64,000 bases of DNA. It comes from a virus. Its lineage: Duplodnaviria; Caudoviricetes. Below the pieces are notes generated by a model. The model searched no databases and was not told where the DNA came from. It saw nothing but the letters and a program-made list of their open reading frames with translations. The position numbers and the translations under genes are program-made. Of the stretch, positions 6,603-54,327 are shown one piece after another. Positions within the stretch are counted from its first letter, which is position 1. Every line of letters starts with the position of its first letter. The stretch covers positions 1,847 through 65,846 of the IMG/VR virus record IMGVR_UViG_3300044695_005677; one strand, 5' to 3'.

Positions 6603-9181
6603 GCACTACCGTCAACGTAACCACTGAAGGAGATGTCACCGTTGGTGTCGAATATAACCCTGTCGCAGGATCGGGAACCGATACCAACATCGGAATAACT
6701 CGGACATCTTCGACGGTTGTCGTCACCTCAAGTTCAGGTACGGACGGGACAATCCTAGCAGCAGACGGCACGAACGCAGGGGTTTTCACTTCTGCCAATT
6801 ACACCAAGCTGGCGGGGATCAGCGGCACCAACACAGGCGACCAGAACATCTTCAAGAACATAGCTGTAGCTGGGCAAGACACTGTAGTCGCTGACACAAC
6901 AACCGACACGCTCACACTCGTAGCAGGAACCAATATCACCCTCACGACGGACGCTGCTACCGATACCATCACAATCACAGCATCAGGAGGTGGAGGCACT
7001 GGAGATGTAGTTGGGCCAGCTAGCGCGACAGATGGAGCTTTCGCTCTGTTCGACACGACCACAGGCAAACTGCTCAAGAACGGATCAATCCCCGGCGGCG
7101 CAGCCACACTCAACGTAGGCACCACCGCAGGCACTGTTGCCGCCGGAGATGACTCTAGGCTCACAAACGCCCGCACACCCACGGCTCACGCCTCTACGCA
7201 CGTCACAGGAGGCTCCGACGCAATCCAGTCGGCTACGTCTTCCCAGAACGGCTTGGCTACTTCCACGCAGATCACTAAGCTCGACGGTATCGAAGCTGGA
7301 GCCGATGTCACAGATGCTACCAATGTATCTGCGGCTGGAGCCGTGATGAAGACCTTGGCTGATGCTAAAGGCGACCTTTTTGCTGCGACTGCTGCCGACA
7401 CAGTGACTCGCTTGCCTATTGGGGTATCGAATGGGCATGTGCTGACCGTTGATTCGGCGGAAACCACGGGGATGAAGTGGACGGCACCTTCCGGCTCCGG
7501 TGGTGATGTCGTCGGGCCAGCAAGCTCAACGGACAATGCTTTTGCACGGTTTGACTCCACGACAGGTAAACTTCTCCAGAACAGCACTGCGACTTTGGAC
7601 GATGTGGGTCTTGCATCTTTGGACGCCGTTCAGTTTGCCACAGCCCCTACAACAACCGAAGGAGTAGCCAAAGCTGTTTGGGATACAACCAATAGCTGCC
7701 TGAGCATTGGCCTCAACTCTTCAGTCACTAGCTTCGTCGGGACTGATCTTCATGTGAAGGTCTATAACCCAACGGCAAGCACCATGACCGTGATGCAGGT
7801 CGTTCGACAGAGCGGAGCTTCTGGCACTCGTCTCAACGTGCAGTTAGCTTTAGGGGATTCCGATACAACTTCCGCAACCTCTATCGGGGTCATTGCCCAG
7901 ACGATAACAAGCCATGCGGAAGGTTTCATCCAGATGGCAGGGTTGCTTCAAGGGGTGAATACGAACGCTTTTGAGGAAGGAGACACCCTTTGGCTATCTC
8001 CGACTACCGCAGGTCTGATTACCAATGTCCGACCCACTGCTCCAAACCATAGTGTTCGGATTGGTTACTGCATCAAGAAAGCCGTTGGAGCAGGAATTAT
8101 CCTTATCGACATCCTCAATGGGTTTGAAATTGGGGAACTGCATGATGTTGTTATCACCGAGCCAGTAGCCGACAATAGTTTCCTCACCTATGATACTGCA
8201 TCCTCAGTATGGATAAACGAAGCCCCCTCCGCAGCAAAATCCTCCATCGGCCTTGGCAGCGTGACCAACGATGCACAGACCAAAGCAGCGATTGTTCCGA
8301 ATACTGCACCGACAGCGGGACAACTTCTTGTGGGGAATGCAGGCGGAACGGCATACGCTCCAGTGTCACTCAGCAGCGACGCTACCGTAGCCAGCACAGG
8401 CGCACTGACTTTGGCGACCGTGAATAGCAACGTTGGTTCCTTTGGCAGCGCAACTCAGTCAGCAGCAGTCACGGTCAATGCCAAAGGCTTAGTGACCGCT
8501 GTCAGCACATCCACGATCACTCCAGCAGTAGGCTCAATCACAGGACTTGGCACTGGAGTGGCAACCGCTCTTGCAGTCAATGTTGGCACCGCAGGAGCGC
8601 CCGTTGTCAATGGTGGAGCACTTGGCACACCATCGAGTGGAACGCTCTCAAGCTGCACTGGACTGCCAATCTCTGGCCTCACTAGCTCCACAAGCACCGC
8701 TCTTGGAGTCGGCACGCTTGAACTTGGTGCAGCTTCAGACACAACCTTGGCTCGTAGTAGTGCCGGAAACATCACCGTCGAGGGCAATCTCATCTACCGT
8801 GCAGGAGGCAGTTTTGTGGGGATGCCTGTTGAGCTTGCTTATGCTTGCTCAGACGAAGGCACTGCTCTGACTACAGGGACTGCCAAGGTGACGTTCCGAA
8901 TGCCGTTTGCCATGACACTGACAGGAATCCGTTCAAGCGTCACGACAGCTCCAACTGGCAGCACTCTTGTTGTTGACCTCAATGAAGGTGGAACATCTGT
9001 CTTGAGCACCAAACTCAGTATTGATGCTACCGAGAAAACTAGTGTCACTGCTGCAACTGCTGCTGTTATCTCAGACAGCGCTTTGGCGGACGATGCTGAG
9101 ATGACCATCGACATCGACCAGATTGGCTCAACCGTCGCAGGAACAGGGCTGAAAGTGACCCTTATCGGGACTCGCGCATGA
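6599..9181 (+). CDS. Fibre or spike protein
   Basis: 860 aa, T/A/G/S-rich, with a duplicated GDVVGPAS.TD.AFA.FD.TTGKLL module and HASTH motif. Confidence 0.75.
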   Translation: MSTTVNVTTEGDVTVGVEYNPVAGSGTDTNIGITRTSSTVVVTSSSGTDGTILAADGTNAGVFTSANYTKLAGISGTNTGDQNIFKNIAVAGQDTVVADTTTDTLTLVAGTNITLTTDAATDTITITASGGGGTGDVVGPASATDGAFALFDTTTGKLLKNGSIPGGAATLNVGTTAGTVAAGDDSRLTNARTPTAHASTHVTGGSDAIQSATSSQNGLATSTQITKLDGIEAGADVTDATNVSAAGAVMKTLADAKGDLFAATAADTVTRLPIGVSNGHVLTVDSAETTGMKWTAPSGSGGDVVGPASSTDNAFARFDSTTGKLLQNSTATLDDVGLASLDAVQFATAPTTTEGVAKAVWDTTNSCLSIGLNSSVTSFVGTDLHVKVYNPTASTMTVMQVVRQSGASGTRLNVQLALGDSDTTSATSIGVIAQTITSHAEGFIQMAGLLQGVNTNAFEEGDTLWLSPTTAGLITNVRPTAPNHSVRIGYCIKKAVGAGIILIDILNGFEIGELHDVVITEPVADNSFLTYDTASSVWINEAPSAAKSSIGLGSVTNDAQTKAAIVPNTAPTAGQLLVGNAGGTAYAPVSLSSDATVASTGALTLATVNSNVGSFGSATQSAAVTVNAKGLVTAVSTSTITPAVGSITGLGTGVATALAVNVGTAGAPVVNGGALGTPSSGTLSSCTGLPISGLTSSTSTALGVGTLELGAASDTTLARSSAGNITVEGNLIYRAGGSFVGMPVELAYACSDEGTALTTGTAKVTFRMPFAMTLTGIRSSVTTAPTGSTLVVDLNEGGTSVLSTKLSIDATEKTSVTAATAAVISDSALADDAEMTIDIDQIGSTVAGTGLKVTLIGTRA

Positions 9182-9846
9182 ACCTTGTAAATCCATACTT
9201 GTTCGCGCCCGCTGGAAATACTGATCCGTATTTCGCAGATGTTAAGCTCCTGTTGCATCTAGATGGCTCAAACGGCGGCACATCAGCCACGGACTTCAGT
9301 CCTATCGCCAGAGCGATCACCTTTTACGGTAACGCCCAGTTGACCACCACTGATCCAAAATTTGGCACCGCTGCGTTGCTGCTCGATGGTAATGGTGACT
9401 ACATCGACACGCCCAGTAGCGCAGATTTCGAGTTCTCGGGAGATTTTACGCTTGAGGCGTGGGTGTACCTCACAACCACAAGTGGTAGTTACAAGACTAT
9501 TTTTGGGAGCGGGACGTATGGACTATACCACATCTCCAACACACTTGTCTGGTATAGCACAGTTGGTGGTCTGACCACGTTCGGGACGATCACGAATAAT
9601 GCGTGGCACCATGTTGCGATCAGTCGCAGTGGCACCTCGTTAAAATGCTTTGTGGACGGTGTGCAGAGTGGGTCAACGCTCACATCGAGCACGAGTTTCA
9701 CCTGCACCACAACGTGGAAAATCGGGTATGATGCCATCGGGGCGGCCTACCTCACCAGCAAGGTGGACGATGTGCGAGTAACAAAAGGAGTCGCTCGATA
9801 CACTGCTGATTTCACTGCACCAACTGAGGCATTCCCTAATTCATAA
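9178..9846 (+). CDS. LamG/concanavalin A-like lectin domain protein
   Basis: LLLHLDG...KFGTAAL.LDG.GDY...DFTLEAWVY...WHHVAISR...DDVRVTKGVARY. Confidence 0.85.
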   Translation: MNLVNPYLFAPAGNTDPYFADVKLLLHLDGSNGGTSATDFSPIARAITFYGNAQLTTTDPKFGTAALLLDGNGDYIDTPSSADFEFSGDFTLEAWVYLTTTSGSYKTIFGSGTYGLYHISNTLVWYSTVGGLTTFGTITNNAWHHVAISRSGTSLKCFVDGVQSGSTLTSSTSFTCTTTWKIGYDAIGAAYLTSKVDDVRVTKGVARYTADFTAPTEAFPNS

Positions 9847-22213: not shown

Positions 22214-23701
22214 ATGGCTACTGCTAAACCCTTCTCGCGTAACGGTAATCTCCTTGCCCCTCCTCCGCCTACTAGGGGGAAAAAGATTATGGGAGTCAGT
22301 GCGGGACCAAATAAGTTCCAAGAAGCTGGGCGTAACCTTGAAGAGGCTGGGTTTAAAGTCCAAAATGGCCAGCTTACCCCGACCCAAGACTACGGGGCAA
22401 TGACGGGCCTTGCCTCTGAGCAAAGGAATTCTCTGTCCCTCGGGTCCAAGCCGGGCAGTGTCTCCACGCTCGGTAGCCCGATGAACTCGATGTATGCGGC
22501 GAACCCGGGGTTTTTCCAACGTAGTGGCGGCGGTGGTGCCGCTGCTGTATCTCCCGAAGTCGCCCGAGCACAGAATATCGCCGCAGCTAAGAAAGCGGGA
22601 ACCTTTGATATCATTCGGGACCAATACAATGCAAAGGGCGGTGCCCAGATGAACGAGCTTGGGACAATCGGAGCGGCGGCTGCTGCTGCTGCTCCTGCGG
22701 CTACGGCTGAAAGCGTTGCCGCCCAACGTGCCAGCATACAAGGTGCTGCTGCTCCTGATATTCCTGCTGCTCCTGCGGCGGAAACTGGCGGATATGAGTA
22801 TGACCCAAATGCCGAAGCGGTGAATACGCTAGCAGACTACAGCAAAGGAGCGACAAACGCGGAGATGGCGGCTGGACCAAAACCTGCTACTCCTGCGGCT
22901 GCTGCTCCAGTCGTTCCTGCTCCTGCTCCAGCTGCTCCGGCTGCTCCTTCCCAGATGGACCTAAACCGTCAGGCTCTTGAGCAGGGCGCTGCGGGCATCC
23001 GTTTACGGCGTGAAGCCTTGGGCCAGATGCCCCAGTCAATTACTTCGGATAGAGGCTACAAAGTAGTTACTGATGCCAAGGGTAATATCGTCGGCACAAA
23101 TGCTCCTGTTGCCCCTGTATCGAGTGCTGTTGGTGGTTTTGCTGACCAGCGTGCTGCTTTCAATATGGGTAAAGGCACATCCGCTGAAAAAGCCGCCCTT
23201 GGCCCAAATATCCGTAGCGCAGCCCTTGCCGAGCTATCTAGGCCAGCGCCAAAACCGATGGCTGCAACTGCGCCAAATGCGGGCGCACAGATGGGTCCGC
23301 CTCTTCAGGGATCGGCACAGATGGGTCCGCCTCTTCAGGGATCGGCACAGATGGGTCCGCCTCTTCAGGGATCGGCACAGATGGGTCCACCTAGTGTGCC
23401 TAACAAGCCTATTCTATCTACCTCTGCTCCTCCCAAGATGTTTGAGTCCGCGACAACTAATAGGTTTGATCTTGTTGGGCCACCGTCAAATATGTCTCGC
23501 CCAATCCAAGGGCCACCCAATGCGGCTGCGACTACTCCTTATGAGCGCATGCAGAAGACTACCCTTGGTCCGGCAAAACCGAATGGGCCTATTCTATCTA
23601 CCTCTGCTCCTCCCAAAATGATGGCGGCGGCTCCTGCATCTATTCCGACTAAGGACGATATCACCAAACAACGTGCTTCTCTTGCCTCCACTAAACGCTA
23701 A
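22214..23701 (+). CDS. Low-complexity A/P/G-rich protein, possible internal virion protein
   Basis: 495 aa, looks disordered, carries internal repeats. Confidence 0.6.
   Translation: MATAKPFSRNGNLLAPPPPTRGKKIMGVSAGPNKFQEAGRNLEEAGFKVQNGQLTPTQDYGAMTGLASEQRNSLSLGSKPGSVSTLGSPMNSMYAANPGFFQRSGGGGAAAVSPEVARAQNIAAAKKAGTFDIIRDQYNAKGGAQMNELGTIGAAAAAAAPAATAESVAAQRASIQGAAAPDIPAAPAAETGGYEYDPNAEAVNTLADYSKGATNAEMAAGPKPATPAAAAPVVPAPAPAAPAAPSQMDLNRQALEQGAAGIRLRREALGQMPQSITSDRGYKVVTDAKGNIVGTNAPVAPVSSAVGGFADQRAAFNMGKGTSAEKAALGPNIRSAALAELSRPAPKPMAATAPNAGAQMGPPLQGSAQMGPPLQGSAQMGPPLQGSAQMGPPSVPNKPILSTSAPPKMFESATTNRFDLVGPPSNMSRPIQGPPNAAATTPYERMQKTTLGPAKPNGPILSTSAPPKMMAAAPASIPTKDDITKQRASLASTKR
23285..23391 (+). repeat. 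30-bp tandem repeat (AQMGPPLQGS, about 3.6 copies)
   Basis: Exact GCACAGATGGGTCCGCCTCTTCAGGGATCG units. Confidence 0.95.
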
Positions 23702-39176: not shown

Positions 39177-39205
39177 ATATTACCGAAACTACCTGCCTAC
39201 GTCAA
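39177..39205 (-). promoter_or_regulatory. Sigma70-type promoter for the MTase/GT operon
   Basis: Minus strand TTGACG, 17-nt spacer, TAATAT. Confidence 0.7.
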
Positions 39206-41100
39206 CTCCAACTTTCTCCCCACCCGCTGCCTTTTCCCCCGAACCCGAAGTCTCCGCCAAAGTCGTCTTTATAGGAAGGTTTTTTCACTGGTGGCGGGTC
39301 AAACCAATTGGTGGTCTTTGCTGCGCTAGTCGATATTTTTGCTGATCGGGACGCGGCTACAAAGTGGTGCCTTCGACGCGCAACTTCGATCAGCCCTACC
39401 CATGCGTCAGCCCTATCCGGACTTCTCCCGCTGGTTCGTTTCTTCATCTCGTCTTTCGGCTCGACGACTACCTTATTTCCCCGATCCGAATACGTTCTGG
39501 CGCAAAGCTCAATCATAGTGGCGTTATCGAGTCCCCTGATTTGACCTGCTGCCATAAACTCTTTTCCAATATACCAGAGTTCTGAAACACGATTGGCAAA
39601 ACGCTCTTTGCCTTTCCGCTTATCAGTCGCACTTACCAGCATATCCGAAGCTGATCCGGCGAAGCTGACCATCTGGAATCCCTGCCCCATCTTCATGGCA
39701 AGAATAGTGGCAAACGGGTCGCCACCACCTGTGGCATCCACACCTCGATCCTGCACCGATACGTTGCGCTTTACGCACTCCTCGATGTAGAGTTCGGCAA
39801 GCTGTTCGTTCCTGTCTTTCGTGCGGTGCCGTGCATTTACCTGCTGCATAAGGTCTAACGTCTCAGTCTTCTCCAGCACCTTCATTGTTTTTCCGTTGAT
39901 CTGGGCAACCCCCAGAAGGCCAAAAGCCGCAGCAGCCGCATCACCACCTTTGGAGAAGGATGGGTCTAGGAAGGCGATAGGTATGGGTCGCTCAAGCCAA
40001 GGGGTGCCTTTTTGACCCGCTAGGCTTTTGGTAAGTTCTGGTTCTGAGTAGACGGTATCGATGGCTCCGGTAGGGCATGGGAAACTTTTCACCATGCGGT
40101 AATAGCCGGGCGAACGGGGGCCGAACTTTTCCCGAATTTCGCGGAGACCTTCCTGAGTGAGAAGACCGGGGTAGAGGGTCTGCCCCGCCACTACGTTTGG
40201 CGATTTTTCCCCATCGAACCGTGAACAGTATCCTCCTACTTTTGTTTCCCATCCTGTCATCTCCTCGGTCACACTATCCCATCCGTTCTTGGGTTCTGTG
40301 AACAGGCCAAATGGGTCGAAGATAGACGTGAGATTTCCTGTCCCAATCATCTGGAAACCGTCATTTGCCAGAAGGTTTGTCACCGCATCATAGAGTTTAT
40401 GTGTGAGCAATGGAAGCTCATCAGCAATGAGTATGAGTCTACCTGCTTTAAACCCGATCTTTGTAGATGCATCCCCATCATTGCCTTTGCCGCCCGCGAT
40501 GAGCGCAATGCCAACAAGGTCGTCAGGTTTGCCTTTAAGGTAGCCTGTGATTTTACCGGACGAGGATACAAGTTTACCGGGCAAGCCCCCAAAAGGCGCA
40601 AAATACGTATCCGCTTCACCCCAGTATTTCTCGACAACACCCCATGCCCTCATTCGTGACTCGGTAAGAGACGTTGAAGTGATGAGCACTTTGGTGTGGC
40701 TAGGATCGATCAGGAACATCGCAATTGCCCAGATCGCACCAAACTGCGTCTTGCCGCTGGAAGCGTGTCCTGACGCAGCGTAGAGCTTGTGCTGGCGTGC
40801 CTGACGCAGCATCTCCTCGGCGTATGGGTTCCATGTGAACTTGTAGACGCAGTCTTTCCTTCCCCAGATCAAGGATACGAAATTCTTGAAATGCTCCTCC
40901 CAGTCTAGGATTTGGTTTCCTGATACCCGCTGATAGAACGAATACTTCCTCAAGATATCCATCTCTATGCGGACATCAGGCATCGGCAAAGCAGGACGGT
41001 TACGACTGTCCATCATGGGTAACCATGTGATGCCGTATTTTACCCTTTTGTATTTATCAGGTATCTGCGAAGGCTGTAGTGGTGGCATATCTATAAGCAA
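39202..41100 (-). CDS. terL: Terminase large subunit
   Basis: Walker A GHASSGKT, Walker B LILIADE, motif III GTGN, RNase H-like FLDPS..GGD and SPDRADA. Confidence 0.9.
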   Translation of the reverse strand: MLIDMPPLQPSQIPDKYKRVKYGITWLPMMDSRNRPALPMPDVRIEMDILRKYSFYQRVSGNQILDWEEHFKNFVSLIWGRKDCVYKFTWNPYAEEMLRQARQHKLYAASGHASSGKTQFGAIWAIAMFLIDPSHTKVLITSTSLTESRMRAWGVVEKYWGEADTYFAPFGGLPGKLVSSSGKITGYLKGKPDDLVGIALIAGGKGNDGDASTKIGFKAGRLILIADELPLLTHKLYDAVTNLLANDGFQMIGTGNLTSIFDPFGLFTEPKNGWDSVTEEMTGWETKVGGYCSRFDGEKSPNVVAGQTLYPGLLTQEGLREIREKFGPRSPGYYRMVKSFPCPTGAIDTVYSEPELTKSLAGQKGTPWLERPIPIAFLDPSFSKGGDAAAAAFGLLGVAQINGKTMKVLEKTETLDLMQQVNARHRTKDRNEQLAELYIEECVKRNVSVQDRGVDATGGGDPFATILAMKMGQGFQMVSFAGSASDMLVSATDKRKGKERFANRVSELWYIGKEFMAAGQIRGLDNATMIELCARTYSDRGNKVVVEPKDEMKKRTSGRSPDRADAWVGLIEVARRRHHFVAASRSAKISTSAAKTTNWFDPPPVKKPSYKDDFGGDFGFGGKGSGWGESWS

Positions 41101-41146
41101 TAAAGCACATGTTATGCGCCTATGCTATCGCGGTTCGTCAAACTAT

Positions 41147-41746
41147 TTATTGGTGGTACGCCTCATAGAGTTCTAAGTCTACTGGAGATGCTTCTGCCAA
41201 GCAGTTGTCGCCGCATCGCGGACAACCCGTTTGCCAAGCCGCATCCCCAAGCTCTTCAAGAGTGTAGGACACACAATCTGCATAGCACCAACGCTGCTCC
41301 TCATCCTGTTCGGAGTCTGGCCCTATATAAAGGTCTACAGGGCAACTGTGGATATTAGGATTCCCAACTGACAGCATCTGGAAAGCGGGGTTGTCCAAGA
41401 GTTCCTGTGAAATCTCAGGGCAAGGGGGCGTGGGTTCGTCCAGAACAAAGCGGATTGGGGTTGCATTATCTTTGGGTATCTCCCGTCCCGGTGAGCAGCA
41501 ACCATCACACTTATGAACCCAATGGTGGTCATCCTTGGGCCAATGCTGGTCGGGGTCGGGATGCCCAACTCCGTGCGAGCAAATGCGCTCTGTGACCTTG
41601 GTATCAAGGCGATAGTGCTGGGGCCAGTCGCGCATGTGATGGTCGCTGGGGTTATGGACGCAGCAGGGTCTGCCCTCACATAGGGCTGGATCATGCGCGA
41701 TAAATACTTGGTCGGACTTATGTGGTTTCCAGTTTCTTGTTTTCAT
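41147..41746 (-). CDS. Cys/His-rich hypothetical protein
   Basis: C.VHNPSDHHM..WP...ERIC.HGVGHPDPD module plus a C-terminal CxxC pair. Confidence 0.65.
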   Translation of the reverse strand: MKTRNWKPHKSDQVFIAHDPALCEGRPCCVHNPSDHHMRDWPQHYRLDTKVTERICSHGVGHPDPDQHWPKDDHHWVHKCDGCCSPGREIPKDNATPIRFVLDEPTPPCPEISQELLDNPAFQMLSVGNPNIHSCPVDLYIGPDSEQDEEQRWCYADCVSYTLEELGDAAWQTGCPRCGDNCLAEASPVDLELYEAYHQ

Positions 41747-41750
41747 TTTA

Positions 41751-41924
41751 TTAGTTGGGGTCAAAGGTAAAGTTCTCACAGATTTGCTCCATGATAGCGT
41801 CCTTGATTTTCTCTTGGATCACTTCGGCATCGGGGTCGTGGGTATGTTTGTGTGCTCGTTGGTAGCCCAGCGCGGTTCCGGTGTCAACGCAGTCGGTGAG
41901 TATCTTATAATAGTTGGGTTTCAT
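41751..41924 (-). CDS. Small hypothetical phage protein
   Basis: MKPNYYKILTDCVDTG...GYQRAHKH. Confidence 0.6.
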   Translation of the reverse strand: MKPNYYKILTDCVDTGTALGYQRAHKHTHDPDAEVIQEKIKDAIMEQICENFTFDPN

Positions 41925-41936
41925 GGTTGGTTGTTT

Positions 41937-41989
41937 TTTGAACGTGCGCTGCACCGAACGCTGCGCGTTGGTGAGCTATTTGTTGTGCC
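41937..41989 (+). mobile_element. attC-like site 1
   Basis: GAAC...GCT(G)CACC(G)AACG-loop-CGTTGGTGAGC...GTTGTGCC, a hairpin with extrahelical bases. Confidence 0.7.
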
Positions 41990-42317
41990 GAATTGAATGC
42001 GTGCAGTTGACGTAAGAGCACCATCGGTCGCCCACGTTGTTTTTGAGCATCCGGGCGTGGCATTTTGGGCATTTCTCCAATGTCCATTGGCCCTCGTCGT
42101 TCGCAGAATTTTCCGCTTCGTTCCAGCCTTGGATGATTTCGAGCGCGGCCCACTCGCTGCGTCTCCAGCATTCAGCCGACGGGAACATCACCTTGCCGCA
42201 CACGTCGCGGACGCTTCGGCGTGTCCCACATTCGTATTGTGGTGCCTTGCATCGCGGGCAGTCTCCATCTGGGATTTCTAGCGCGATTCCAAGTCTTTCA
42301 GCTTCGTCTACGTTCAT
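41976..42317 (-). CDS. Cassette 1 cargo, Zn-finger-like protein
   Basis: MNVDEAERL... with CPRC and CPKC; its stop codon lies inside attC1. Confidence 0.6.
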   Translation of the reverse strand: MNVDEAERLGIALEIPDGDCPRCKAPQYECGTRRSVRDVCGKVMFPSAECWRRSEWAALEIIQGWNEAENSANDEGQWTLEKCPKCHARMLKNNVGDRWCSYVNCTHSIRHNK

Positions 42318-42370
42318 GGGATTTTTTCTTTTCTGCGTTCTTTTCTGCGCGTCAGCCTCAAAAATTAAGA

Positions 42371-42461
42371 GGCACAACAAGACGTGGGATCTAACCGCCG
42401 GAAGCGTCTTGTTTCCAGTTCGGACCACTGCGCGGCGGTAGATCCACATCGGCGTTCAGCC
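42371..42461 (+). mobile_element. attC-like site 2
   Basis: R'' GGCACAAC; stem GTGG(G)ATCTA(A)CCGCCG / CGGCGGTAGATCCAC; R' GTTCAGCC. Confidence 0.85.
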
Positions 42462-42668
42462 AATCACAAGAACTCCCGATTCGCGGAGGTCTGCGCGTTG
42501 AATTAGCAAGTTTTCTTGGCTGGCTAAGTAGCCCTCAATGAACTCAGCATAGGCGCGGCCTGTCCTGCCTTCTGAGGCAGTGATCGTGCTGGTAACATTT
42601 TTCTGGAAGTCGGCGACTCCGCGATTCCATCCGCATTGGTAGTCTTCTGAGCAGGGTTCGGTTTTCAT
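42456..42668 (-). CDS. Cassette 2 cargo, hypothetical protein
   Basis: 70 aa filling the gap between attC2 and attC3; its TGA lies in the R' core site. Confidence 0.65.
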   Translation of the reverse strand: MKTEPCSEDYQCGWNRGVADFQKNVTSTITASEGRTGRAYAEFIEGYLASQENLLIQRADLRESGVLVIG

Positions 42669-42958
42669 GGTCGTGTGTGGTTTCGGGCTGAACCATCGGC
42701 TGGTGCCAACGGCTCGAAGTTGATCAATCGTGTTGGCGGTGGCGCTGTGCTCGCCGTCGGCACATCCTGAGCGTTCTCTGACTTACGTTTACCTCTCGGC
42801 CTGCGGAGCGACTGAATCGCTAGGACTGCCTCGTTGGTGATGGTCATGGTGCCGTTTTCCCGCTTTGCGACAGTCACGCGGTTTACACCGAGGAGGCGAG
42901 CAACATCGGCTTGTGTGCCGAGGTGCTCGCGTGTGGCTTTGTATTCGGCGGCGGTCAT
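42665..42958 (-). CDS. Xre-family HTH protein (cassette 3); C-terminus reads through attC3
   Basis: MTAAEYKATREHLGTQADVARLLGVNRVTVAKRENG. Confidence 0.85.
   Translation of the reverse strand: MTAAEYKATREHLGTQADVARLLGVNRVTVAKRENGTMTITNEAVLAIQSLRRPRGKRKSENAQDVPTASTAPPPTRLINFEPLAPADGSARNHTRP
42686..42782 (+). mobile_element. attC-like site 3
   Basis: R'' GGCTGAAC; stem GGCTG(G)TGCCAACGGC / GCCGTCGGCACATCC; R' GTTCTCTGAC. Confidence 0.8.
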
Positions 42959-43056
42959 GGCATTGCGTGCAGAATATCGAAGGTGATGCGAACCCAAGCC
43001 AGAAAGCACGCTGACAGGACAGCGAACCCACACCACCAAAGAAGGCGCTCTTTCAT
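42955..43056 (-). CDS. 33-aa hydrophobic peptide (cassette 3, not in ORF track)
   Basis: MKERLLWWCGFAVLSACFLAWVRITFDILHAMP with ATGA overlaps at both ends. Confidence 0.55.
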   Translation of the reverse strand: MKERLLWWCGFAVLSACFLAWVRITFDILHAMP

Positions 43057-43334
43057 TTTGCCTCCTTTGCTTGGCACATGATACAGCCGTGCTTTTGTTC
43101 AGTTTCATGGAGCCACGCCCCGCATTTTCCGCAGCGTGGTGCTGGAGCTTTTGGCGTTTCACCCACATAACAGCAAGCCACATGCGGACAACCCAGCTTG
43201 CCGTCGAGTGGGTTTATTCCCATCGCGGTGCCGCAAGCGGGACATTCCATTTCCCCCTCGTAAGGAGGCGAGCACTCGTTTCCGAGGCATGATGATTCCC
43301 CACAGAGGGGGCAGGCGTTACTTGATGGCGTCAT
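43053..43334 (-). CDS. Cys-rich Zn-ribbon protein (cassette 3)
   Basis: CPLC, CPAC, CGKC and CIMC motifs. Confidence 0.55.
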   Translation of the reverse strand: MTPSSNACPLCGESSCLGNECSPPYEGEMECPACGTAMGINPLDGKLGCPHVACCYVGETPKAPAPRCGKCGAWLHETEQKHGCIMCQAKEAK

Positions 43335-43584
43335 AGTAGGCGGCGGCTGATTCTGCGGAGACATAGAGGGGATGCTCTGGCATACGGGTGCGCTGAGTCT
43401 GCTCGGTGAGCATTTCGGTTGCCTGCTCATAGCGAGCGGCAGCTTCCGCGAACTGCGGTGATTGTGTGCCGTAGTCGGCTTGAGCGGCCTGCATCGCCTC
43501 ATCTGAGCGGCGGCGCATTGCGCTGATTGCGAGGATTGCCTTTTGGCGTGAGGTGGTGAGTTCTGCGAATGGGATGATGGTCAT
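43318..43584 (-). CDS. Hypothetical protein, first gene of cassette 3 operon
   Basis: MTIIPFAEL... immediately after the cassette promoter. Confidence 0.6.
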   Translation of the reverse strand: MTIIPFAELTTSRQKAILAISAMRRRSDEAMQAAQADYGTQSPQFAEAAARYEQATEMLTEQTQRTRMPEHPLYVSAESAAAYYDAIK

Positions 43585-43608
43585 ATGTTTGGGATTGGTT
43601 ACGTTTCT

Positions 43609-43637
43609 ATTGTGTAGCATAAAGCTACACCGTGCAA
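43609..43637 (-). promoter_or_regulatory. Cassette-internal promoter with palindromic operator
   Basis: TTGCAC, 17-nt spacer, CACAAT; GTGTAGC-N5-GCTACAC inverted repeat at 43612-43630 over the spacer and -10 box. Confidence 0.7.
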
Positions 43638-43663
43638 CTCTTATTTGAAGATTTTTCACCAAC

Positions 43664-43738
43664 GTCAGAGAACACGGCGCTGCTGCCAATTCGCAGAGCC
43701 TCATGGCAGAGCCTCATGGCAGAGCTTGGTCGTTCTGC
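43664..43738 (+). mobile_element. attC-like site 4
   Basis: R'' GTCAGAGAAC; GCT(G)CTGCCA...TGGCAGAGC; TTGGTC then GTTCTGC; contains a 13-bp tandem duplication. Confidence 0.8.
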
Positions 43739-44184
43739 TGAAAAAATCCAACTGGCTCAATTCTCCGTCCGCAGTAGGGGCACCACTTCGCCCGGTTTTC
43801 GGTCGGGCCTCCAGTCTCGAAGACGAAGCACTCGCCGCAAGCGGTGTCCCAGTTTCCATCTTCATCCTCGGACCACCGGCACAAGATGAGAACCGATTTC
43901 GGGTTTGCTGTCCGATACGACCACAGATGTGCTTTTAAGTCAGCAATAATTAACTCAGCAGGTAGTTGTAGGGTAGATGATAGTATTTGAGCAAGTGAAT
44001 AATCATTAATCGGGCCGAGCGGTCCAATACTTTGCTCTACTTCTCGTATCTGTTTAATACAATTAGTAATAGCATCTACTCCCCACTGAGAGACAATTAC
44101 ATGTTGGAGATTCTTTCTGATATTTCGCTCATACTCAGCATCACGGAGAGCATTGTCTAGCTTCTTCTCAAGTTCTGATATCAT
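43714..44184 (-). CDS. Hypothetical protein with C-terminal Zn-ribbon (cassette 4)
   Basis: W.EDEDG.W.TACG...CPYCG; AT-rich N-terminal half. Confidence 0.6.
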   Translation of the reverse strand: MISELEKKLDNALRDAEYERNIRKNLQHVIVSQWGVDAITNCIKQIREVEQSIGPLGPINDYSLAQILSSTLQLPAELIIADLKAHLWSYRTANPKSVLILCRWSEDEDGNWDTACGECFVFETGGPTENRAKWCPYCGRRIEPVGFFQQNDQALP

Positions 44185-44218
44185 AAGTTAAAAGGAAGAA
44201 ATAAATCCGATTCTGTAT

Positions 44219-44542
44219 TCATGATTTTGCCCCGCCCTCATCGCGGGATGCCTCCGTGTTCTGAGTCTCGCAGTCCGCCAGCAGTTGCTCGATGGCCTGC
44301 TTGAGTGCTGGCCATTCCTCCGGCGATACTTGGATGGTCTGCGACTTCGCATCTGTGCGCCCGCTTTGCTGCTCGATTTCCAAGAACTCTCCAGCGGCTT
44401 CGTCCACGATGGATACGTTCGTGCATTGTTCCGAGAACAGCGGCTCTTTCGCCGGAAGCACTGAGAGTCGAGTGATTCGCACACGGAACTCAGAACCATG
44501 TGCGGCTGCCAACGAGGCGGGGCGGGAGTCGTTCGTGTTCAT
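44219..44542 (-). CDS. Hypothetical protein whose N-terminus is encoded by an attC half-site
   Basis: MNTNDSRPASLAAAHGSE then RITRLSVLP..EPLFSE..T.VSIVDEAAGEFLEI.Q. Confidence 0.7.
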   Translation of the reverse strand: MNTNDSRPASLAAAHGSEFRVRITRLSVLPAKEPLFSEQCTNVSIVDEAAGEFLEIEQQSGRTDAKSQTIQVSPEEWPALKQAIEQLLADCETQNTEASRDEGGAKS

Positions 44543-44560
44543 CGTGCGTCTTTCTGCCCT
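44491..44560 (+). mobile_element. Truncated attC-like site 5 (left arm only)
   Basis: CAGAAC-CATGT-GCGGCTGCCAACG; CAGAAC complements GTTCTG of site 4; right arm not recognisable. Confidence 0.5.
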
Positions 44561-44818
44561 CCATACTCCACGTCGTCAATAGTGTTGTTTTTCAGGTGGT
44601 CAAGTGCGTGCGCTATGAAGGTTCGCTCCTTATTTGTTAGCTTCATTTTGTTTCTTTCCATCTAAACTCTGTGCTGTCTTGACCGAGGACGTGCCACTCA
44701 GCAAAGCCTCGTCTGATAGCCTCTTCTTTGAGATTGCCTAGCTGTATAACAGCGGCAAAAGCGGCGATCAGGGCGAGGACGAACATGAAGGCACCTAACT
44801 GTGCTGCGTGGTTTTCAC

Positions 44819-45085
44819 TCATGGTTGCGTGTGCAAAAAGTTCTGGATGTCCTCATACAGTCCAATCTCCATACGTCCCGCTGAATCGCGGCAACGGGTC
44901 AGGAGTCGGATAGCGTTTTGAATCTTGACGGCTTGGAGCATCAACGTCTGCTGACGGTCAATGAGTCGGAAGCTGAGTTCTGAGATGTCGCGCTCAAGTT
45001 GGCGGGCGAAGTCTGGAGCGATGCAAGGATCACCTTCTTTACAGGTGATGCTTTCGTTTGCATCTGTTCGTGGTGTTGGTGTCAT
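44819..45085 (-). CDS. TPRTD...FARQLERE family small protein
   Basis: Motif shared with two neighbouring genes. Confidence 0.7.
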   Translation of the reverse strand: MTPTPRTDANESITCKEGDPCIAPDFARQLERDISELSFRLIDRQQTLMLQAVKIQNAIRLLTRCRDSAGRMEIGLYEDIQNFLHTQP

Positions 45086-45432
45086 GGTTTTCCTTTCACT
45101 TTAGTGATGGCTGCCTTAGCTTTCATCAACGCTGCATTTTGGTTACGGGCTTCTATTGTCGGCATTACAGCTATACCGCCGTTTGCTGCCACCATTGATT
45201 CCAAAGCCTCCAGCAAGACATCCACTTCTGCGCCGCGCTTGCCAGCTACATCTGCCCACTCGGAGCAACGGATGCGGACTTTATGTAGCTGCTCGTTTGC
45301 GTCGTTGAGTTCACGTTCAAGTTGGCGGGCAAAGTCTGCTAGCACTACATGGTGATATGTATTTTCAAAGCAACTCGGGACTTGTAGAATTTCTGCATCT
45401 GTTCGTGGTGTTGGTGTCGGTGTCGGTGTCAT
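45082..45432 (-). CDS. TPRTD...FARQLERE family small protein
   Basis: Shared motif; ATGA overlap. Confidence 0.7.
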   Translation of the reverse strand: MTPTPTPTPRTDAEILQVPSCFENTYHHVVLADFARQLERELNDANEQLHKVRIRCSEWADVAGKRGAEVDVLLEALESMVAANGGIAVMPTIEARNQNAALMKAKAAITKVKGKP

Positions 45433-45556
45433 GGCGTAATGAGTTTTCCGTTGGTTAGGGTGTAGATGATGGCGTCTGCGATGTCGGGATCTCCAGCGAA
45501 GAGAACTACTAGGAGGAAAAAGGCGATAATGCTTGCGGTGTCGGAGTCGATGAGGG

Positions 45557-45949
45557 TCATGGTTGAACTCCTTTCGCTTTGGTTATCACTGCAAGAGCGG
45601 GTTTCCAAGGCACCTTTGTGTCGCCTTCAATATACGGCAGGATGCTTTCCAATACCCCTAACATCTCAGCATTTTCGCGCTCAAGTTGGCGGGCGAAATT
45701 GGGGTCACACCTCTCAAAGTCCTCGCGGTATTCCCTGTGCTTGTCTGTTCGTGGTGTTGGTGACGAATCTGGTTTCGTTACCAACTCCGCAAGCACCGCC
45801 TCCTTGACCGCTTGCGCGAATGCTTGGCGTTGCTCTTCGTCGTGGAACCAGCCGGGGTGATTCCGTGTCACCGCTAGGGTGCCGCATCCTTTGTTGAGTA
45901 GTGCTGCGGCTTTTGCCCCGATGTTTGCTAGTTGTTTGAGTGTTTTCAT
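45557..45949 (-). CDS. Hypothetical protein with internal TPRTD...FARQLERE module
   Basis: Shared motif in the C-terminal half. Confidence 0.7.
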   Translation of the reverse strand: MKTLKQLANIGAKAAALLNKGCGTLAVTRNHPGWFHDEEQRQAFAQAVKEAVLAELVTKPDSSPTPRTDKHREYREDFERCDPNFARQLERENAEMLGVLESILPYIEGDTKVPWKPALAVITKAKGVQP

Positions 45950-46212
45950 AGTGTTTCAAGTTTGACGTTTGCTGTAATTGTTGGTTGTACTGTGCGGATG
46001 ACTTTGACGATGTGGAGAGGCTGGCACCAGTCGGTACTCTTATCGGTTTGCAGGCAGGCACAGGAGTCCTCCCACAATTCCGCTGTGTTCTTGATGATGA
46101 GTGCCTCCGCTTCGCGCTGCGTTTTATATGGGCCGAGAGCGGTGAAGGTTCCGATGCTTGTGCCGGGAGTATCCATGTCAATCACCCAGTAGTCGTGCGA
46201 TGGTTTTTTCAT
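45946..46212 (-). CDS. Hypothetical protein
   Basis: 88 aa with coupled overlaps. Confidence 0.6.
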   Translation of the reverse strand: MKKPSHDYWVIDMDTPGTSIGTFTALGPYKTQREAEALIIKNTAELWEDSCACLQTDKSTDWCQPLHIVKVIRTVQPTITANVKLETL

Positions 46213-46963: not shown

Positions 46964-48385
46964 TTAACAAAAATCTTCTTCTCGTATCAGCTTATTTACC
47001 TTTTTTCCTTTGCTCGCTCGGTAGCTTTCCAGCAGTTTCAGCGCCTTTAATAGTCGGTCTTCAGTGCTTTTCTTTTCTTCGATCACCGTTGCTACCGCAT
47101 AGTCCACCGTGTTGGTACACATGAGCCTGTAAACACGCACGATGTCTTCCTGCCCACGTCGGGACAGTCGTGCGATCATCTGCTCGTAGTCCTCTCGACT
47201 GAATGTCAGAGTAAACCAGACCAGTGTTCTACCACCGTGCTGTAGGTTTAGCCCGTGTCCTACCGACTTGGGGTGTGCCACTAGCATTGGTATCTCCTTT
47301 GCGTTCCATTTTCTGAGCAGTTCCTTTTGGGCCGATTCCGTTTTGGCATCTGCGAAAAAGTGCGCTTTTGGAAACGCTTTTCTCATTCTCTCCTGCTCAT
47401 GTTTAAATGCACAGGCTACCAATACAGGCTCACCAGCTTTTTGCATGATAAGCTCAAGGGCTTTTATCTTCAGCGGATGCACATCGTGCCAAACGCTCTC
47501 GGTATCATACACGGCTCCTGAAGTGAACTGTAGCAGTTTCCCAACCAGCACTGCGGCATTAGACGCGGTGATCTCTTCTCCGGATGCAACCTCTAAGATT
47601 AGCTCTTCTTCAAATTCCTTGTATTTACTTAGACCATCCTTGCTTAAAGGAACCTCGATATCGATGACTTCAGTATCCGGTATGTCCAGCCAGTCTTTCG
47701 ACCTGAGCGTCAGCGTGATATCTGATAACCTGTTTTGGATAGCTTCCTGAGCATGAGGCTTTTCCTGCCAGATGTAGTTGTTATACCCGCTTGGAGAAAA
47801 GTAAGTCTGCTGAAACAAGCTAAAGGATCGACCAAGGCGAACTCCACCGTCCACGAATCGAGTTTGTGCAAACAGGTCCATCAGCGAGTTGGGTGCTGGT
47901 GTCCCTGTTAATGCCCAGATGCGCTTGTGCTTCTCATGGGGGACTACCCGTCGATATGCGTTGGGTCTTTTAGCAGAATGATTTTTTATTTTTGTGCTTT
48001 CATCAATGACTAGCGTATCATAGGGCAAAGTCTTTTTTGACTCGATCAGGGTTACGAGATTTGGTATCCCCTCAAAGTTACACAAGTAGATATGTGCTGA
48101 TCCCTGAAGGAACGCTCTTTTGCCTGCTTGGTTACGTAGATTAGCTACCTTCATCCACGAAAAGTCGTCCCACTGTTCAATCTCCATCGGCCAAGTCAGG
48201 TTGATTACCCGCATCGGTGCCAGAATAAGAACTCCCTTTGTTTCTCCAGAAGCGAACAGTTGGTTAATCGCGCTCAAGGTAGCCGCTGTCTTGCCAATAC
48301 CAACCCCCACAAACCCAAGGGCGTGGGGGTGGTTGAGAAGGTGCTGCGTGAGCAAGTCTTGCGGTTCTGAAGATGGGAACTTCAT
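46964..48385 (-). CDS. SNF2-family helicase
   Basis: GVGIGKT, LVIDES, LTGTP, S.GHGLNLQ, Q...RL.RRGQ. Confidence 0.95.
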   Translation of the reverse strand: MKFPSSEPQDLLTQHLLNHPHALGFVGVGIGKTAATLSAINQLFASGETKGVLILAPMRVINLTWPMEIEQWDDFSWMKVANLRNQAGKRAFLQGSAHIYLCNFEGIPNLVTLIESKKTLPYDTLVIDESTKIKNHSAKRPNAYRRVVPHEKHKRIWALTGTPAPNSLMDLFAQTRFVDGGVRLGRSFSLFQQTYFSPSGYNNYIWQEKPHAQEAIQNRLSDITLTLRSKDWLDIPDTEVIDIEVPLSKDGLSKYKEFEEELILEVASGEEITASNAAVLVGKLLQFTSGAVYDTESVWHDVHPLKIKALELIMQKAGEPVLVACAFKHEQERMRKAFPKAHFFADAKTESAQKELLRKWNAKEIPMLVAHPKSVGHGLNLQHGGRTLVWFTLTFSREDYEQMIARLSRRGQEDIVRVYRLMCTNTVDYAVATVIEEKKSTEDRLLKALKLLESYRASKGKKVNKLIREEDFC

Positions 48386-53145: not shown

Positions 53146-54327
53146 TTAGCAGATATCTGAAGATTCATCTTCAAATGATTCGGTAGCGAGGATGTATTCA
53201 GGGCGAGTATCGTCCTCTGAGGCCAGTGTCGGGCCACCTTCCGGCTTAATGATAAGCGTCTGAATCTTGGCCCATGTTTCTTTTGGGAAATCAAATTCAA
53301 ACTCGCTGACCTTGCTTGGGGAAATGAGTTCTTCAGTAATCACGTCTTCGCGTTTGCAGTTCTCAAGCAGTAGCTCCTTGGCCTTGTCTTTATCAATCCA
53401 CTTGCGGTGACCACCTTTGCCTTGAACGAGCTTCATGTTAGGCAGTGTTTTGCCATCAAGCGCCATCTCAAGAGCATACTCTTCAAGTTTAGATAGCCAT
53501 TTCTTGATTTCAGAAGCCTTGAGCAGCATCCTCGACAAGATGTCTGGAGTGATGTCTGCGGCTTTCGGCAATGCCTTTGGCTCGGCTTTGCCCTTCACTA
53601 CTTTCTCAAGCGGTGTATCACCAAGCATCCACGCCACACGGGCTGTGCAAAACGAGGATGCCGGACAAAACTGACACGTGTCACTGCTTGGTGCGAATTT
53701 CAAAGTCATGGCTTTGGCCTTGATATCTTCTGCTGGGCCGAGAATTCTGTCATCAGTGAACTGAACCAGTTCGGAGTAGCTGACTGTCCATGTGGATACC
53801 TTGTCTCCTTGACGAACCCTTGGCTGCACAATGTGCATACTGATTTTGAAATCTTTCGGTGGGTTGAGCTTCTGCTGTTTGATCATACTGCGTGCGTAGA
53901 TCGCCATTTGCAGATTCTCAAAAGCGTTGACTGCCACACCGACACCATACTTGTAGTCGATGATGTGGATGTCCGTTTCGCTGACAGAGCAGTAGTCGAC
54001 GTAGCCGTTGCGACCACTCATGTAAAAGAGGTCCACCTTCAACTCCGAGCACCAGAACACTGCGTCACCCTGACGTTCGCGACAGAACTTCACAAAGTCT
54101 TTGGCATGTCCGATCATCTCCGCCGTTGCTTTTTCGGGGAGACCCCTAAAGTCATTCTGGTCATCGCGCTTCAGGAATGCTTCGACCACGGTGTGAGCGA
54201 TAGTTCCTTCAACCGAGTATTCAGTATTCTGCGGAGGTATACGGTCGGCATTCTCTGCGACGTATTGGGGTTGTGCGGTGCATTCTGTCCATGTTTTTGC
54301 CGCTGAGGCATTGAGGTTTATTTTCAT
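53146..54327 (-). CDS. Cas4-like PD-(D/E)xK exonuclease (DUF2800-like)
   Basis: W..C, EGT.AH, GYVD, IIDYKYG.G, N.Q..IYA, CQFCPA..FC. Confidence 0.9.
   Translation of the reverse strand: MKINLNASAAKTWTECTAQPQYVAENADRIPPQNTEYSVEGTIAHTVVEAFLKRDDQNDFRGLPEKATAEMIGHAKDFVKFCRERQGDAVFWCSELKVDLFYMSGRNGYVDYCSVSETDIHIIDYKYGVGVAVNAFENLQMAIYARSMIKQQKLNPPKDFKISMHIVQPRVRQGDKVSTWTVSYSELVQFTDDRILGPAEDIKAKAMTLKFAPSSDTCQFCPASSFCTARVAWMLGDTPLEKVVKGKAEPKALPKAADITPDILSRMLLKASEIKKWLSKLEEYALEMALDGKTLPNMKLVQGKGGHRKWIDKDKAKELLLENCKREDVITEELISPSKVSEFEFDFPKETWAKIQTLIIKPEGGPTLASEDDTRPEYILATESFEDESSDIC

Follow-up and report, generated by a model that had tools for sequence, protein, structure and literature searches.

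Positions 41937-44545 of a phage genome from the IMG/VR virus collection (record IMGVR_UViG_3300044695_005677) probably form an integron-type cassette array without an integrase of its own, that is, a cluster of attC sites that has no integron integrase (CALIN), in which cassettes are exchanged at G|TT by a recombinase supplied in trans, most likely a host enzyme of the IntI type. The window we analysed is the 64,000-nucleotide stretch covering bases 1847-65846 of this 65,846-base record, which is rated 100% complete; positions are those of the window. The genome is that of a lytic-looking freshwater phage, and the array lies in its accessory-gene region, between replication genes (SNF2-type helicase, 46964-48385) and the large terminase (39202-41100; PHROG 2), where the - strand carries all genes in the open reading frame (ORF) list.

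Four complete folded sites (A-D), all on the + strand, fall within 1.8 kb of the window (41937-43738), and a truncated fifth (E) follows at 44486-44545. Sites A-D share one layout, namely xxxxAAC, 5 nt, a stem carrying one or two extra bases in its 5' arm, a loop of variable length, the returning stem, 6 nt and GTTxxxx. We scored them with a dynamic-programming search for this layout, written from the phage sites (the scanner). The outer boxes, R'' on the left and R' on the right, and the parts between them are as follows.

Site A, 41937-41988, + strand: R'' TTTGAAC, 5-nt spacer, two extra bases in the 5' arm, 3-nt loop, 6-nt spacer CTATTT, R' GTTGTGC; scanner score 8.0.
Site B, 42372-42460, + strand: R'' GCACAAC, spacer AAGAC, two extra bases 6 bp apart, spacer ATCGGC, R' GTTCAGC; scanner score 9.0.
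Site C, 42687-42779, + strand: R'' GCTGAAC, spacer CATCG, one extra G and one mismatch, spacer CTGAGC, R' GTTCTCT; scanner score 6.5; located within the C-terminal tail of gene g4.
Site D, 43667-43738, + strand: R'' AGAGAAC, spacer ACGGC, stem with one extra G, spacer TTGGTC, R' GTTCTGC; scanner score 7.5; contains the last 8 codons of gene g8.
Half-site E, 44486-44545, + strand: R'' CAGAAC, a spacer, a 5' stem arm and part of a loop with the start codon of gene g9.

The four complete hairpins and one half-site of the preliminary description are thus upheld: A-D share their layout, and the first ~45 bases of E, which is without a 3' arm and R', align with the 5' half of complete sites from two other phage contigs (L050 s4 and L052 s2). 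AAC and GTT are present in all 4 window sites and in all 18 distinct sites of the family, with one further site in the relative L004 reading CAC/GTG. With the register fixed, 14 of the 18 have a Watson-Crick first L pair, and two sites have 6/6 spacing. Site C and its homologue in L004 differ by compensatory stem changes, indicating a conserved structure. Folding energies of the sites are unremarkable against shuffled sequence (z -0.2 to -2.7); the evidence for the sites is their shared geometry, not their stability. A duplex-energy search for sites was too noisy and a relaxed-core scan was noisy as well, and a MAFFT alignment of the phage sites was set aside as a basis for a model, with 1 of 7 3' ends out of register. 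The loop of site D (43690-43725) holds a 13-nt tandem duplication, which gives the 3' stem arm two alternative registers.

The cores of these sites match in an offset manner. Each right core is the complement of the left core of the next site, over 8 bases from A to B (GTTGTGCC/GGCACAAC, cassette 1), 8 bases from B to C (GTTCAGCC/GGCTGAAC, cassette 2) and 10 bases from C to D (GTTCTCTGAC/GTCAGAGAAC, cassette 3); cores of the same site show no pairing beyond the triplets. Each of the three pairs has a single partner within the next 3.5 kb. A fourth pair, GTTCTG/CAGAAC, spans 6 bases only and is not significant alone, since GTTCTG is found 6 times in 41000-45500. All eight core strings listed in the preliminary description lie where it had placed them, and its claim of offset matching stands for the three longer pairs and not, taken by itself, for the fourth. 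Chaining from site A by the same rule recovered 9 cassettes in 5 of 8 records, with matches of 8-10 bases that are unique in the next 3.5 kb, the three remaining records ending at site A; L001 and L003 each contribute one offset-matched cassette, and the metagenome contig L134 has chimeric sites too. For 9 sites located by offset match alone, the hairpin score was reached by 0.1-2.6% of the 1,523 AAC positions of the window, so the two features support each other independently.

The cassettes delimited by these cores, the genes they carry and the gene flanking them on the left are listed below.

g1, 41751-41924, - strand: 57 aa, left flank of the array, taken from the ORF list; no Pfam or PHROG match.
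Cassette 1, 41983-42454, + strand: 472 nt, g2 and site B.
g2, 41976-42317, - strand: 113 aa, with a Cys-rich, zinc-ribbon-like C-terminal domain (weak matches below cut-off).
Cassette 2, 42455-42773, + strand: 319 nt, g3 and site C.
g3, 42456-42668, - strand: 70 aa, without family; translation stops within the opening bases of the cassette.
Cassette 3, 42774-43732, + strand: 959 nt, four genes (g4-g7) and site D.
g4, 42665-42958, - strand: 97-aa helix-turn-helix protein (Pfam HTH_3, E 5.6e-6, above cut-off; PHROG transcription regulators).
g5, 42955-43077, - strand: possible small membrane protein of 33-40 aa, from the ORF list only.
g6, 43053-43334, - strand: 93 aa, Cys-rich (Zn_Ribbon_1, E 0.004, below cut-off).
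g7, 43318-43584, - strand: 88 aa, without family in Pfam and PHROG.
Degenerate fourth unit, 43733-44545, + strand: g8, g9 and half-site E, with only the 6-base offset match.
g8, 43714-44184, - strand: phrog_10312 match (E 1.8e-10); the gene ends inside site D.
g9, 44219-44542, - strand: start codon in the loop of half-site E.

Every cargo gene lies on the strand opposite to that of the sites, as the preliminary description had reported. Among the 9 cassettes recovered by chaining, the - strand is open over the whole body in 7, and in an eighth over 235 of 239 nt; the + strand is open over the whole body in 1. A comparison of gene side, with bacterial sites as a crude control, gave 17 top, 4 bottom and 7 ties for 28 bacterial sites, and 0 top, 5 bottom and 4 ties for the phage cassettes. 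Genes and sites interlock: in several sites the start codon of the cassette gene falls within the hairpin loop, site C and the final part of cassette 2 code for the last ~40 residues of g4, and the 6-base spacer of site A gives a TAG stop to whichever gene adjoins it. The product of g2 accordingly ends in ...HNK, with HN encoded by the core and the stop within site A. This gene has 7 homologues, four of which (P0001, P0004, P0005 and P0007) diverge at most 2 residues from the core-encoded point, three directly after HN and P0007, which reads PN, one or two residues on; the g2-like product of L134 also ends directly after HN. Scans of viral contigs found no relatives of g2 and g3, and a metagenome-collection scan for the g2 family returned one locus only, L134.

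The coding sequence for the N-terminal half of g8 lies in an AT-rich stretch (43928-44220; 37% GC, against 52% for the genome). L001 has this stretch at 100% identity and a contig of metagenome run X7 has it too; at 43928, both continue into another C-terminal part, which runs into another site, and this looks like a domain swap within the gene.

Cassettes have been gained and lost at these sites in nature. The near-identical phages L049 and L051 (99.94% and 100% identical over 3.3 and 5.5 kb, 8.8 kb in total) differ by one 251-nt cassette, placed exactly between the G and the TT of the right core of site A. In a different study, a 498-nt contig from a lake metagenome (run X6) joins 41981 to 42454, skipping 472 nt with three letters shared at the joint; the deletion corresponds to cassette 1, from GTT to GTT. 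This contig keeps hairpin A and loses hairpin B; it follows that a unit consists of a gene and the hairpin that stands right of it when the + strand is read, with crossover at the right core, as in integrons. Site A, the leftmost site, is a hot spot of cassette insertion at which contigs break at 41984: homology to L004 ends at this base, three contigs from runs X3 and X7 leave the window there with differing continuations, and at least 5 different continuations follow the site A GTT in relatives and metagenome contigs. A 20-mer of site A is exact in 7 viral stretches. On its left, g1 has stayed together with site A in L004, where window positions 41724-41984 are 95% identical to L004 8832-9090. 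Among the 10 loose ends listed inside the array, 6 lie in or beside core boxes, and the body shared by L001 and L004 (98%) starts at the TT of the right core of L004 site b. The preliminary description had proposed a comparison of related contigs for cassette gain or loss at the GTT junctions, and the 472-nt loss in run X6, the 251-nt difference between L049 and L051 and the break at 41984 all fall there.

Since the scanner was written after the sites had been seen, we tested it on bacterial integrons. In the 64-kb window, it returned exactly sites A-D on the + strand and only site B, read backwards, on the - strand, and Markov-shuffled windows gave 0-2 matches per strand (10 runs). As a control we used the aadA1 attC of plasmid R100, read from that record. 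Its gene strand runs GTCTAAC, 5 bases, stem, 4-base loop, 6 bases, GTTAGAT, and the 5' arm of its stem has two extra bases separated by 6 bp, the same spacing as in site B. This site was the best scanner match in 50 kb of R100, with one weak background match. Across 80 IntI1-like bacterial loci, the array zones, which total 329 kb, held 92 scanner matches, 79 of them distinct (2.8 per 10 kb), and the 1,549 kb outside these zones had 35 (0.23 per 10 kb), a twelve-fold enrichment.

We also built a covariance model (R1) from 28 diverse bacterial attC sites, aligned after being picked by the scanner plus a core filter, a choice whose bias R1 inherits. Searched over the whole window on both strands with filters off, R1 gave 8 matches, of which site D scored highest, at 19.3 bits (E 0.011), followed by site B at 14.5 bits (E 0.18); these two matches lie on the + strand and are of full length, with exact ends. 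In relatives, it scored sites at 18.7 bits in L049, 16.4 in L003, 14.6 in L001 and 9.4-10.6 for three sites of L050. Two sites of L134 reached 30.1 and 21.7 bits, and the g2-like cassette of this contig lies between them. In aggregate, the attC type assigned to the array in the preliminary description is borne out by the layout shared with the R100 aadA1 attC and by the enrichment of scanner matches in bacterial array zones. The covariance-model support that the same description had called for came, with our own model R1, clearly for sites D and B, partly for site A and not for site C.

Beyond the array, weak R1 matches (~10 bits) occur on both strands at 23398-23480, where near-perfect inverted integron-like cores (GCCTAAC ... 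GTTGGGC) stand without inner stems. A first, looser version of the search pattern gave lone + strand matches at 53669-53769 and 669-744, which are probably due to chance and could be solitary sites; the former lies within a 393-aa gene and is conserved in the closest relative (L026 2653-2755).

The window's own record encodes no recombinase that could serve these sites. Six-frame searches of all 65,846 bases for an integron integrase (TIGR02249), a tyrosine recombinase (PF00589) or a serine recombinase (PF00239) found none, in agreement with the earlier claim of an integrase-free array. PF00589 likewise had no match in 9 of 10 related records, two of them 90% and 98% complete, and thus none in 10 of the 11 array records including the window's own, three of these 90-100% complete; a short tyrosine recombinase gene beside the array was found in none of the 11 records examined. 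With no recombinase in the record and no tyrosine recombinase in 9 of 10 related records, the enzyme must act in trans. A search for promoter-like sites in 41500-45000 also found none, so that both the integrase and the promoter of a complete integron are missing from these stretches.

The exception among the 11 records, G008, encodes a 385-aa Xer-like recombinase ~10 kb from its array. This protein falls far below the integron-integrase cut-off (26.6 versus 265 bits), adjoins an ORF whose translation resembled an endolysin by eye, a setting that would suit a lysogeny integrase, and had no relatives in a pattern scan of the viral collection; its distance, its putative endolysin neighbour and its want of viral relatives do not support it as the enzyme of the array. 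G008 (L050, L135) is itself an unrelated GC-rich phage contig with terminal repeats and an array of the same type, comprising 3 complete cassettes. One of its sites shares the exact 20-mer of site A, and a run of GAATGAG repeats precedes its first site. Its backbone has 63-66% GC and its array 55%, like the array of the window, whose backbone has 52%.

We propose that the exchangeable unit is a small gene or gene group with one folded attC-like site, and that site-specific recombination adds or removes such units, crossing over at G|TT in the right-hand core, presumably through single-strand folding of the site and a circular intermediate. Such exchange at the right core would leave chimeric sites, each right core matching the left core of the next site. 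Polarity is opposite to that of bacterial cassettes, with the genes on what would be the recombining bottom strand: the hairpin precedes its gene, often holding the start codon, and the gene reads out of its cassette into the preceding site, which may supply the stop. With this reversal, all cargo is co-directional with phage transcription. The recombinase, supplied in trans, would prefer a GAAC/GTTC core, unlike the enzymes of class 1 integrons. We regard a host IntI-type integrase as the most likely enzyme, with a phage-type Xer-like recombinase as its main rival; the geometry of the sites argues for the former, and the shifted core, reversed genes and phage-only cargo leave room for another recombinase.

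Several observations weigh against the reading as a CALIN served by a host integrase. For the host integrase proposed in the preliminary description, no link to a host or to any IntI was found. The core differs from that of bacterial sites, whose consensus is RYYYAAC/GTTRRRY. Of 18 phage sites, 17 have a G directly before AAC and 15 a C directly after GTT, whereas among 81 bacterial array-strand matches the base before AAC was T in 53, C in 19, G in 5 and A in 4, and the base after GTT was A in 47, G in 26, T in 6 and C in 2; the phage core is therefore GAAC/GTTC, outside the consensus, and the bacterial one YAAC/GTTR. The R1 scores, at 8-19 bits, are modest: for site A, the model detected the inner (L) stems only, at 6.4 bits and in a search of a small region, and site C was detected neither there nor in the whole window. 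A degenerate pattern of site C and its L004 homologue had 0 matches in the genome collection, a negative that is weak evidence because the pattern needs exact bases, and none of the 7 homologues of g2 comes from a named genome. Cargo lying wholly antisense to attC polarity is unusual for integron cassettes.

Breakpoints add to this list. Classical bottom-strand recombination predicts breaks only at the right core. Loose ends also occur at left cores (41935, 41939 and 42688), and the body shared by L001 and L004 ends one base after AAC, followed by unrelated hairpins. Recombination of the top strand could account for the left-core breaks, and was seen at lower frequency by Qi et al. (2023; PMC9892861). 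The expectation, set out in the preliminary description, that gene content would change at G/TT is correct for the right-core cases, and breakpoints lie at left (AAC) cores as well. Other joints (42943>43611, 45081>45810 and 41130>44645) lie away from the sites, so ordinary mosaicism acts here too. The read evidence is drawn throughout from assembled contigs, and such contigs can be chimeric; where runs X3, X5, X6 and X7 gave no contig cover of the window, the gap was not counted as evidence.

The main alternative is a phage-specific integron-like system, in which a shorter, Xer-type tyrosine recombinase, not IntI, acts on the same kind of folded sites; its gene would be absent in this lineage, and either a co-infecting phage, a prophage or the host would supply the enzyme in trans, or the array would be becoming frozen. 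The GAAC/GTTC core in place of YAAC/GTTR, the reversed polarity of every cassette, the breakpoints at both cores and the phage-like cargo without homologues in named bacterial genomes all point that way, as do the cassette GC of ~55% in two unrelated backbones and the Xer-like recombinase encoded by one of these backbones, G008. We nevertheless hold this explanation to be rather unlikely. The G008 enzyme has the location and neighbour of a possible lysogeny integrase and is without relatives in the pattern scan, 10 of 11 array records are without a PF00589 match, the geometry is exactly that of IntI substrates down to the extra bases 6 bp apart in site B, and a model made from bacterial attC sites detects the phage sites. 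A broader suggestion, which we offer tentatively as possible, is that the sites make up a cassette pool owned by phages and not by bacterial integrons, marked by reversed units in which the hairpin precedes the gene, provides its start codon and leaves the stop to the neighbouring site, by the GAAC/GTTC core, a composition of its own, circulation among unrelated backbones and exchange at both cores by a non-classical recombinase.

Passive capture of a piece of a bacterial chromosomal integron through illegitimate recombination, followed by inertness, would fit the missing integrase of the window's own record. It is improbable, as near-identical phages differ by single cassettes at site A, at least 5 continuations follow the site A GTT, all cargo runs in the direction of the phage genes and on the strand opposite to the sites, and neither site C, searched by an exact-base pattern, nor the g2 family had a bacterial match. 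Finally, ordinary intergenic regulatory hairpins or terminators with chance core matches are hardly credible: folding energies near those of shuffled sequence and the frequency of inverted 8-mers (131 inverted pairs in 3 kb) would allow them, but the three offset pairs of the window match over 17 bases beyond the fixed triplets, the offset rule recurs in 5 other records, exact cassette-sized insertions and deletions exist, and site C lies within a reading frame. None of 5 terminator-like sites coincides with A-D, no promoter-like site was found, and the sites had no match in Rfam.

The CALIN served in trans, which we prefer, has published counterparts. Cury et al. (2016; PMC4889954) define a CALIN as at least two attC sites within 4 kb with no integron integrase nearby, and describe the chimeric nature of attC sites; the array has four sites within 1.8 kb and no TIGR02249 or PF00589 match in its 65.8-kb record. 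Qi, Rajabal, Ghaly, Tetu and Gillings (2023, Front Microbiol; PMC9892861), screening with IntegronFinder and HattCI, report 17 CALINs among 10,705 phage genomes from NCBI, and found that IntI1 recombined 5 of 6 attC sites from virulent phages; they also saw multiple ORFs between sites and divergently directed sites. As they describe them, these phage CALINs resemble the array in their rows of attC-type sites, small cassettes, location in virulent phages and absence of an integrase. The array described here differs in that each cassette gene is antisense to its site, the core is GAAC/GTTC, start codons stand in hairpin loops, and gain and loss are resolved to a single base, both in metagenome contigs and between near-identical phages. 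Neither 'antisense' nor 'opposite' occurs in the main text of Qi et al. (PMC9892861), whose supplements may list gene orientation, and among titles and abstract openings in the literature we found none describing a reversal of polarity, the GAAC/GTTC core or the turnover of cassettes among near-identical phages. As CALINs in virulent phages were published in 2023 (PMC9892861), the finding is less new than it first seemed; the reversed polarity, the shifted core and the visible natural turnover are new.

Similar to classical integron cassettes and their attC sites, such as that of R100 aadA1, the phage sites have R''/L''/L'/R' boxes, spacers of 5 and 6 nt that stay unpaired, a top-strand 5' arm with extra-helical bases, a loop of variable size, a G|TT crossover and chimeric sites within the array. 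Unlike classical integrons, they come with no detected intI or Pc promoter, their genes lie on the bottom and not the top strand, the fourth core base differs, and single-gene cassettes are small (251-472 nt). Loot and co-workers describe cassettes inserted by IntI1 outside att sites (attG) in E. coli (bioRxiv 10.1101/2022.09.11.507474); as described there, attG insertion offers a route by which an integrase acting in trans could seed a cassette with its attC in an integron-free genome.

As for the phage itself, neither blastn of 41000-46000 nor tblastn of the terminase found a relative among GenBank phages, so there is no cultured relative and no clue to the host from that source. The stretch is present in 24 metagenome runs from 20 studies, with at least half of its sampled words in 6 runs, and the runs are labelled as lake water, freshwater and estuary metagenomes; habitat is read solely from the labels of runs holding most of the stretch. 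The closest relative is L004 (terminase 98.8% identical); L026, found at 99% through the SNF2 helicase, is the L004 contig and also carries the array. More distant relatives, gathered through the SNF2 helicase (67-71% identity; L027-L046), have no arrays and only scattered background matches. In L006, a site match at 9109-9219 spans a gene junction and was taken for chance. Between helicase and terminase, relatives with ~70% terminase identity have two genes and no array (L006 9179-10004), one of them a small HNH nuclease by eye and the other encoding a protein with three 17-residue tandem repeats.

Other genes flank the array. At 41147-41779, just upstream of the terminase, lies a 210-aa Cys/His-rich ORF without a family match, of which the C-terminal half alone is conserved in L001 and L004, making it a mosaic or maybe two genes. 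At 44643-44822, a gene encodes a 59-aa membrane protein; L004 has two copies of it (7234-7416 and 9589-9771), one adjoining the terminase, and a contig of run X7 shows the same rearrangement (joint from 44824 back to 41150).

Integrons are regarded as bacterial devices, and examples in phages are few and recent. The array described here indicates that cassette traffic is ongoing in wild phage populations, where otherwise identical genomes differ by one unit, and that the same type of site serves two unrelated phage backbones. Through the reversed design, transcription of the phage genes would take in any captured gene. Were the enzyme a host integrase, phages would tap the gene-capture machinery of their hosts to vary accessory genes, which probably include genes for host takeover or counter-defence; if it is a different recombinase, this would be a second, phage-borne form of integron-like shuffling, and a phage-owned pool, if true, would mean that phages have an integron-like system of their own for shuffling accessory genes. 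Either way, the small cassettes, with their zinc-ribbon proteins, helix-turn-helix regulator and proteins without family, make up a defined set of exchangeable phage genes.

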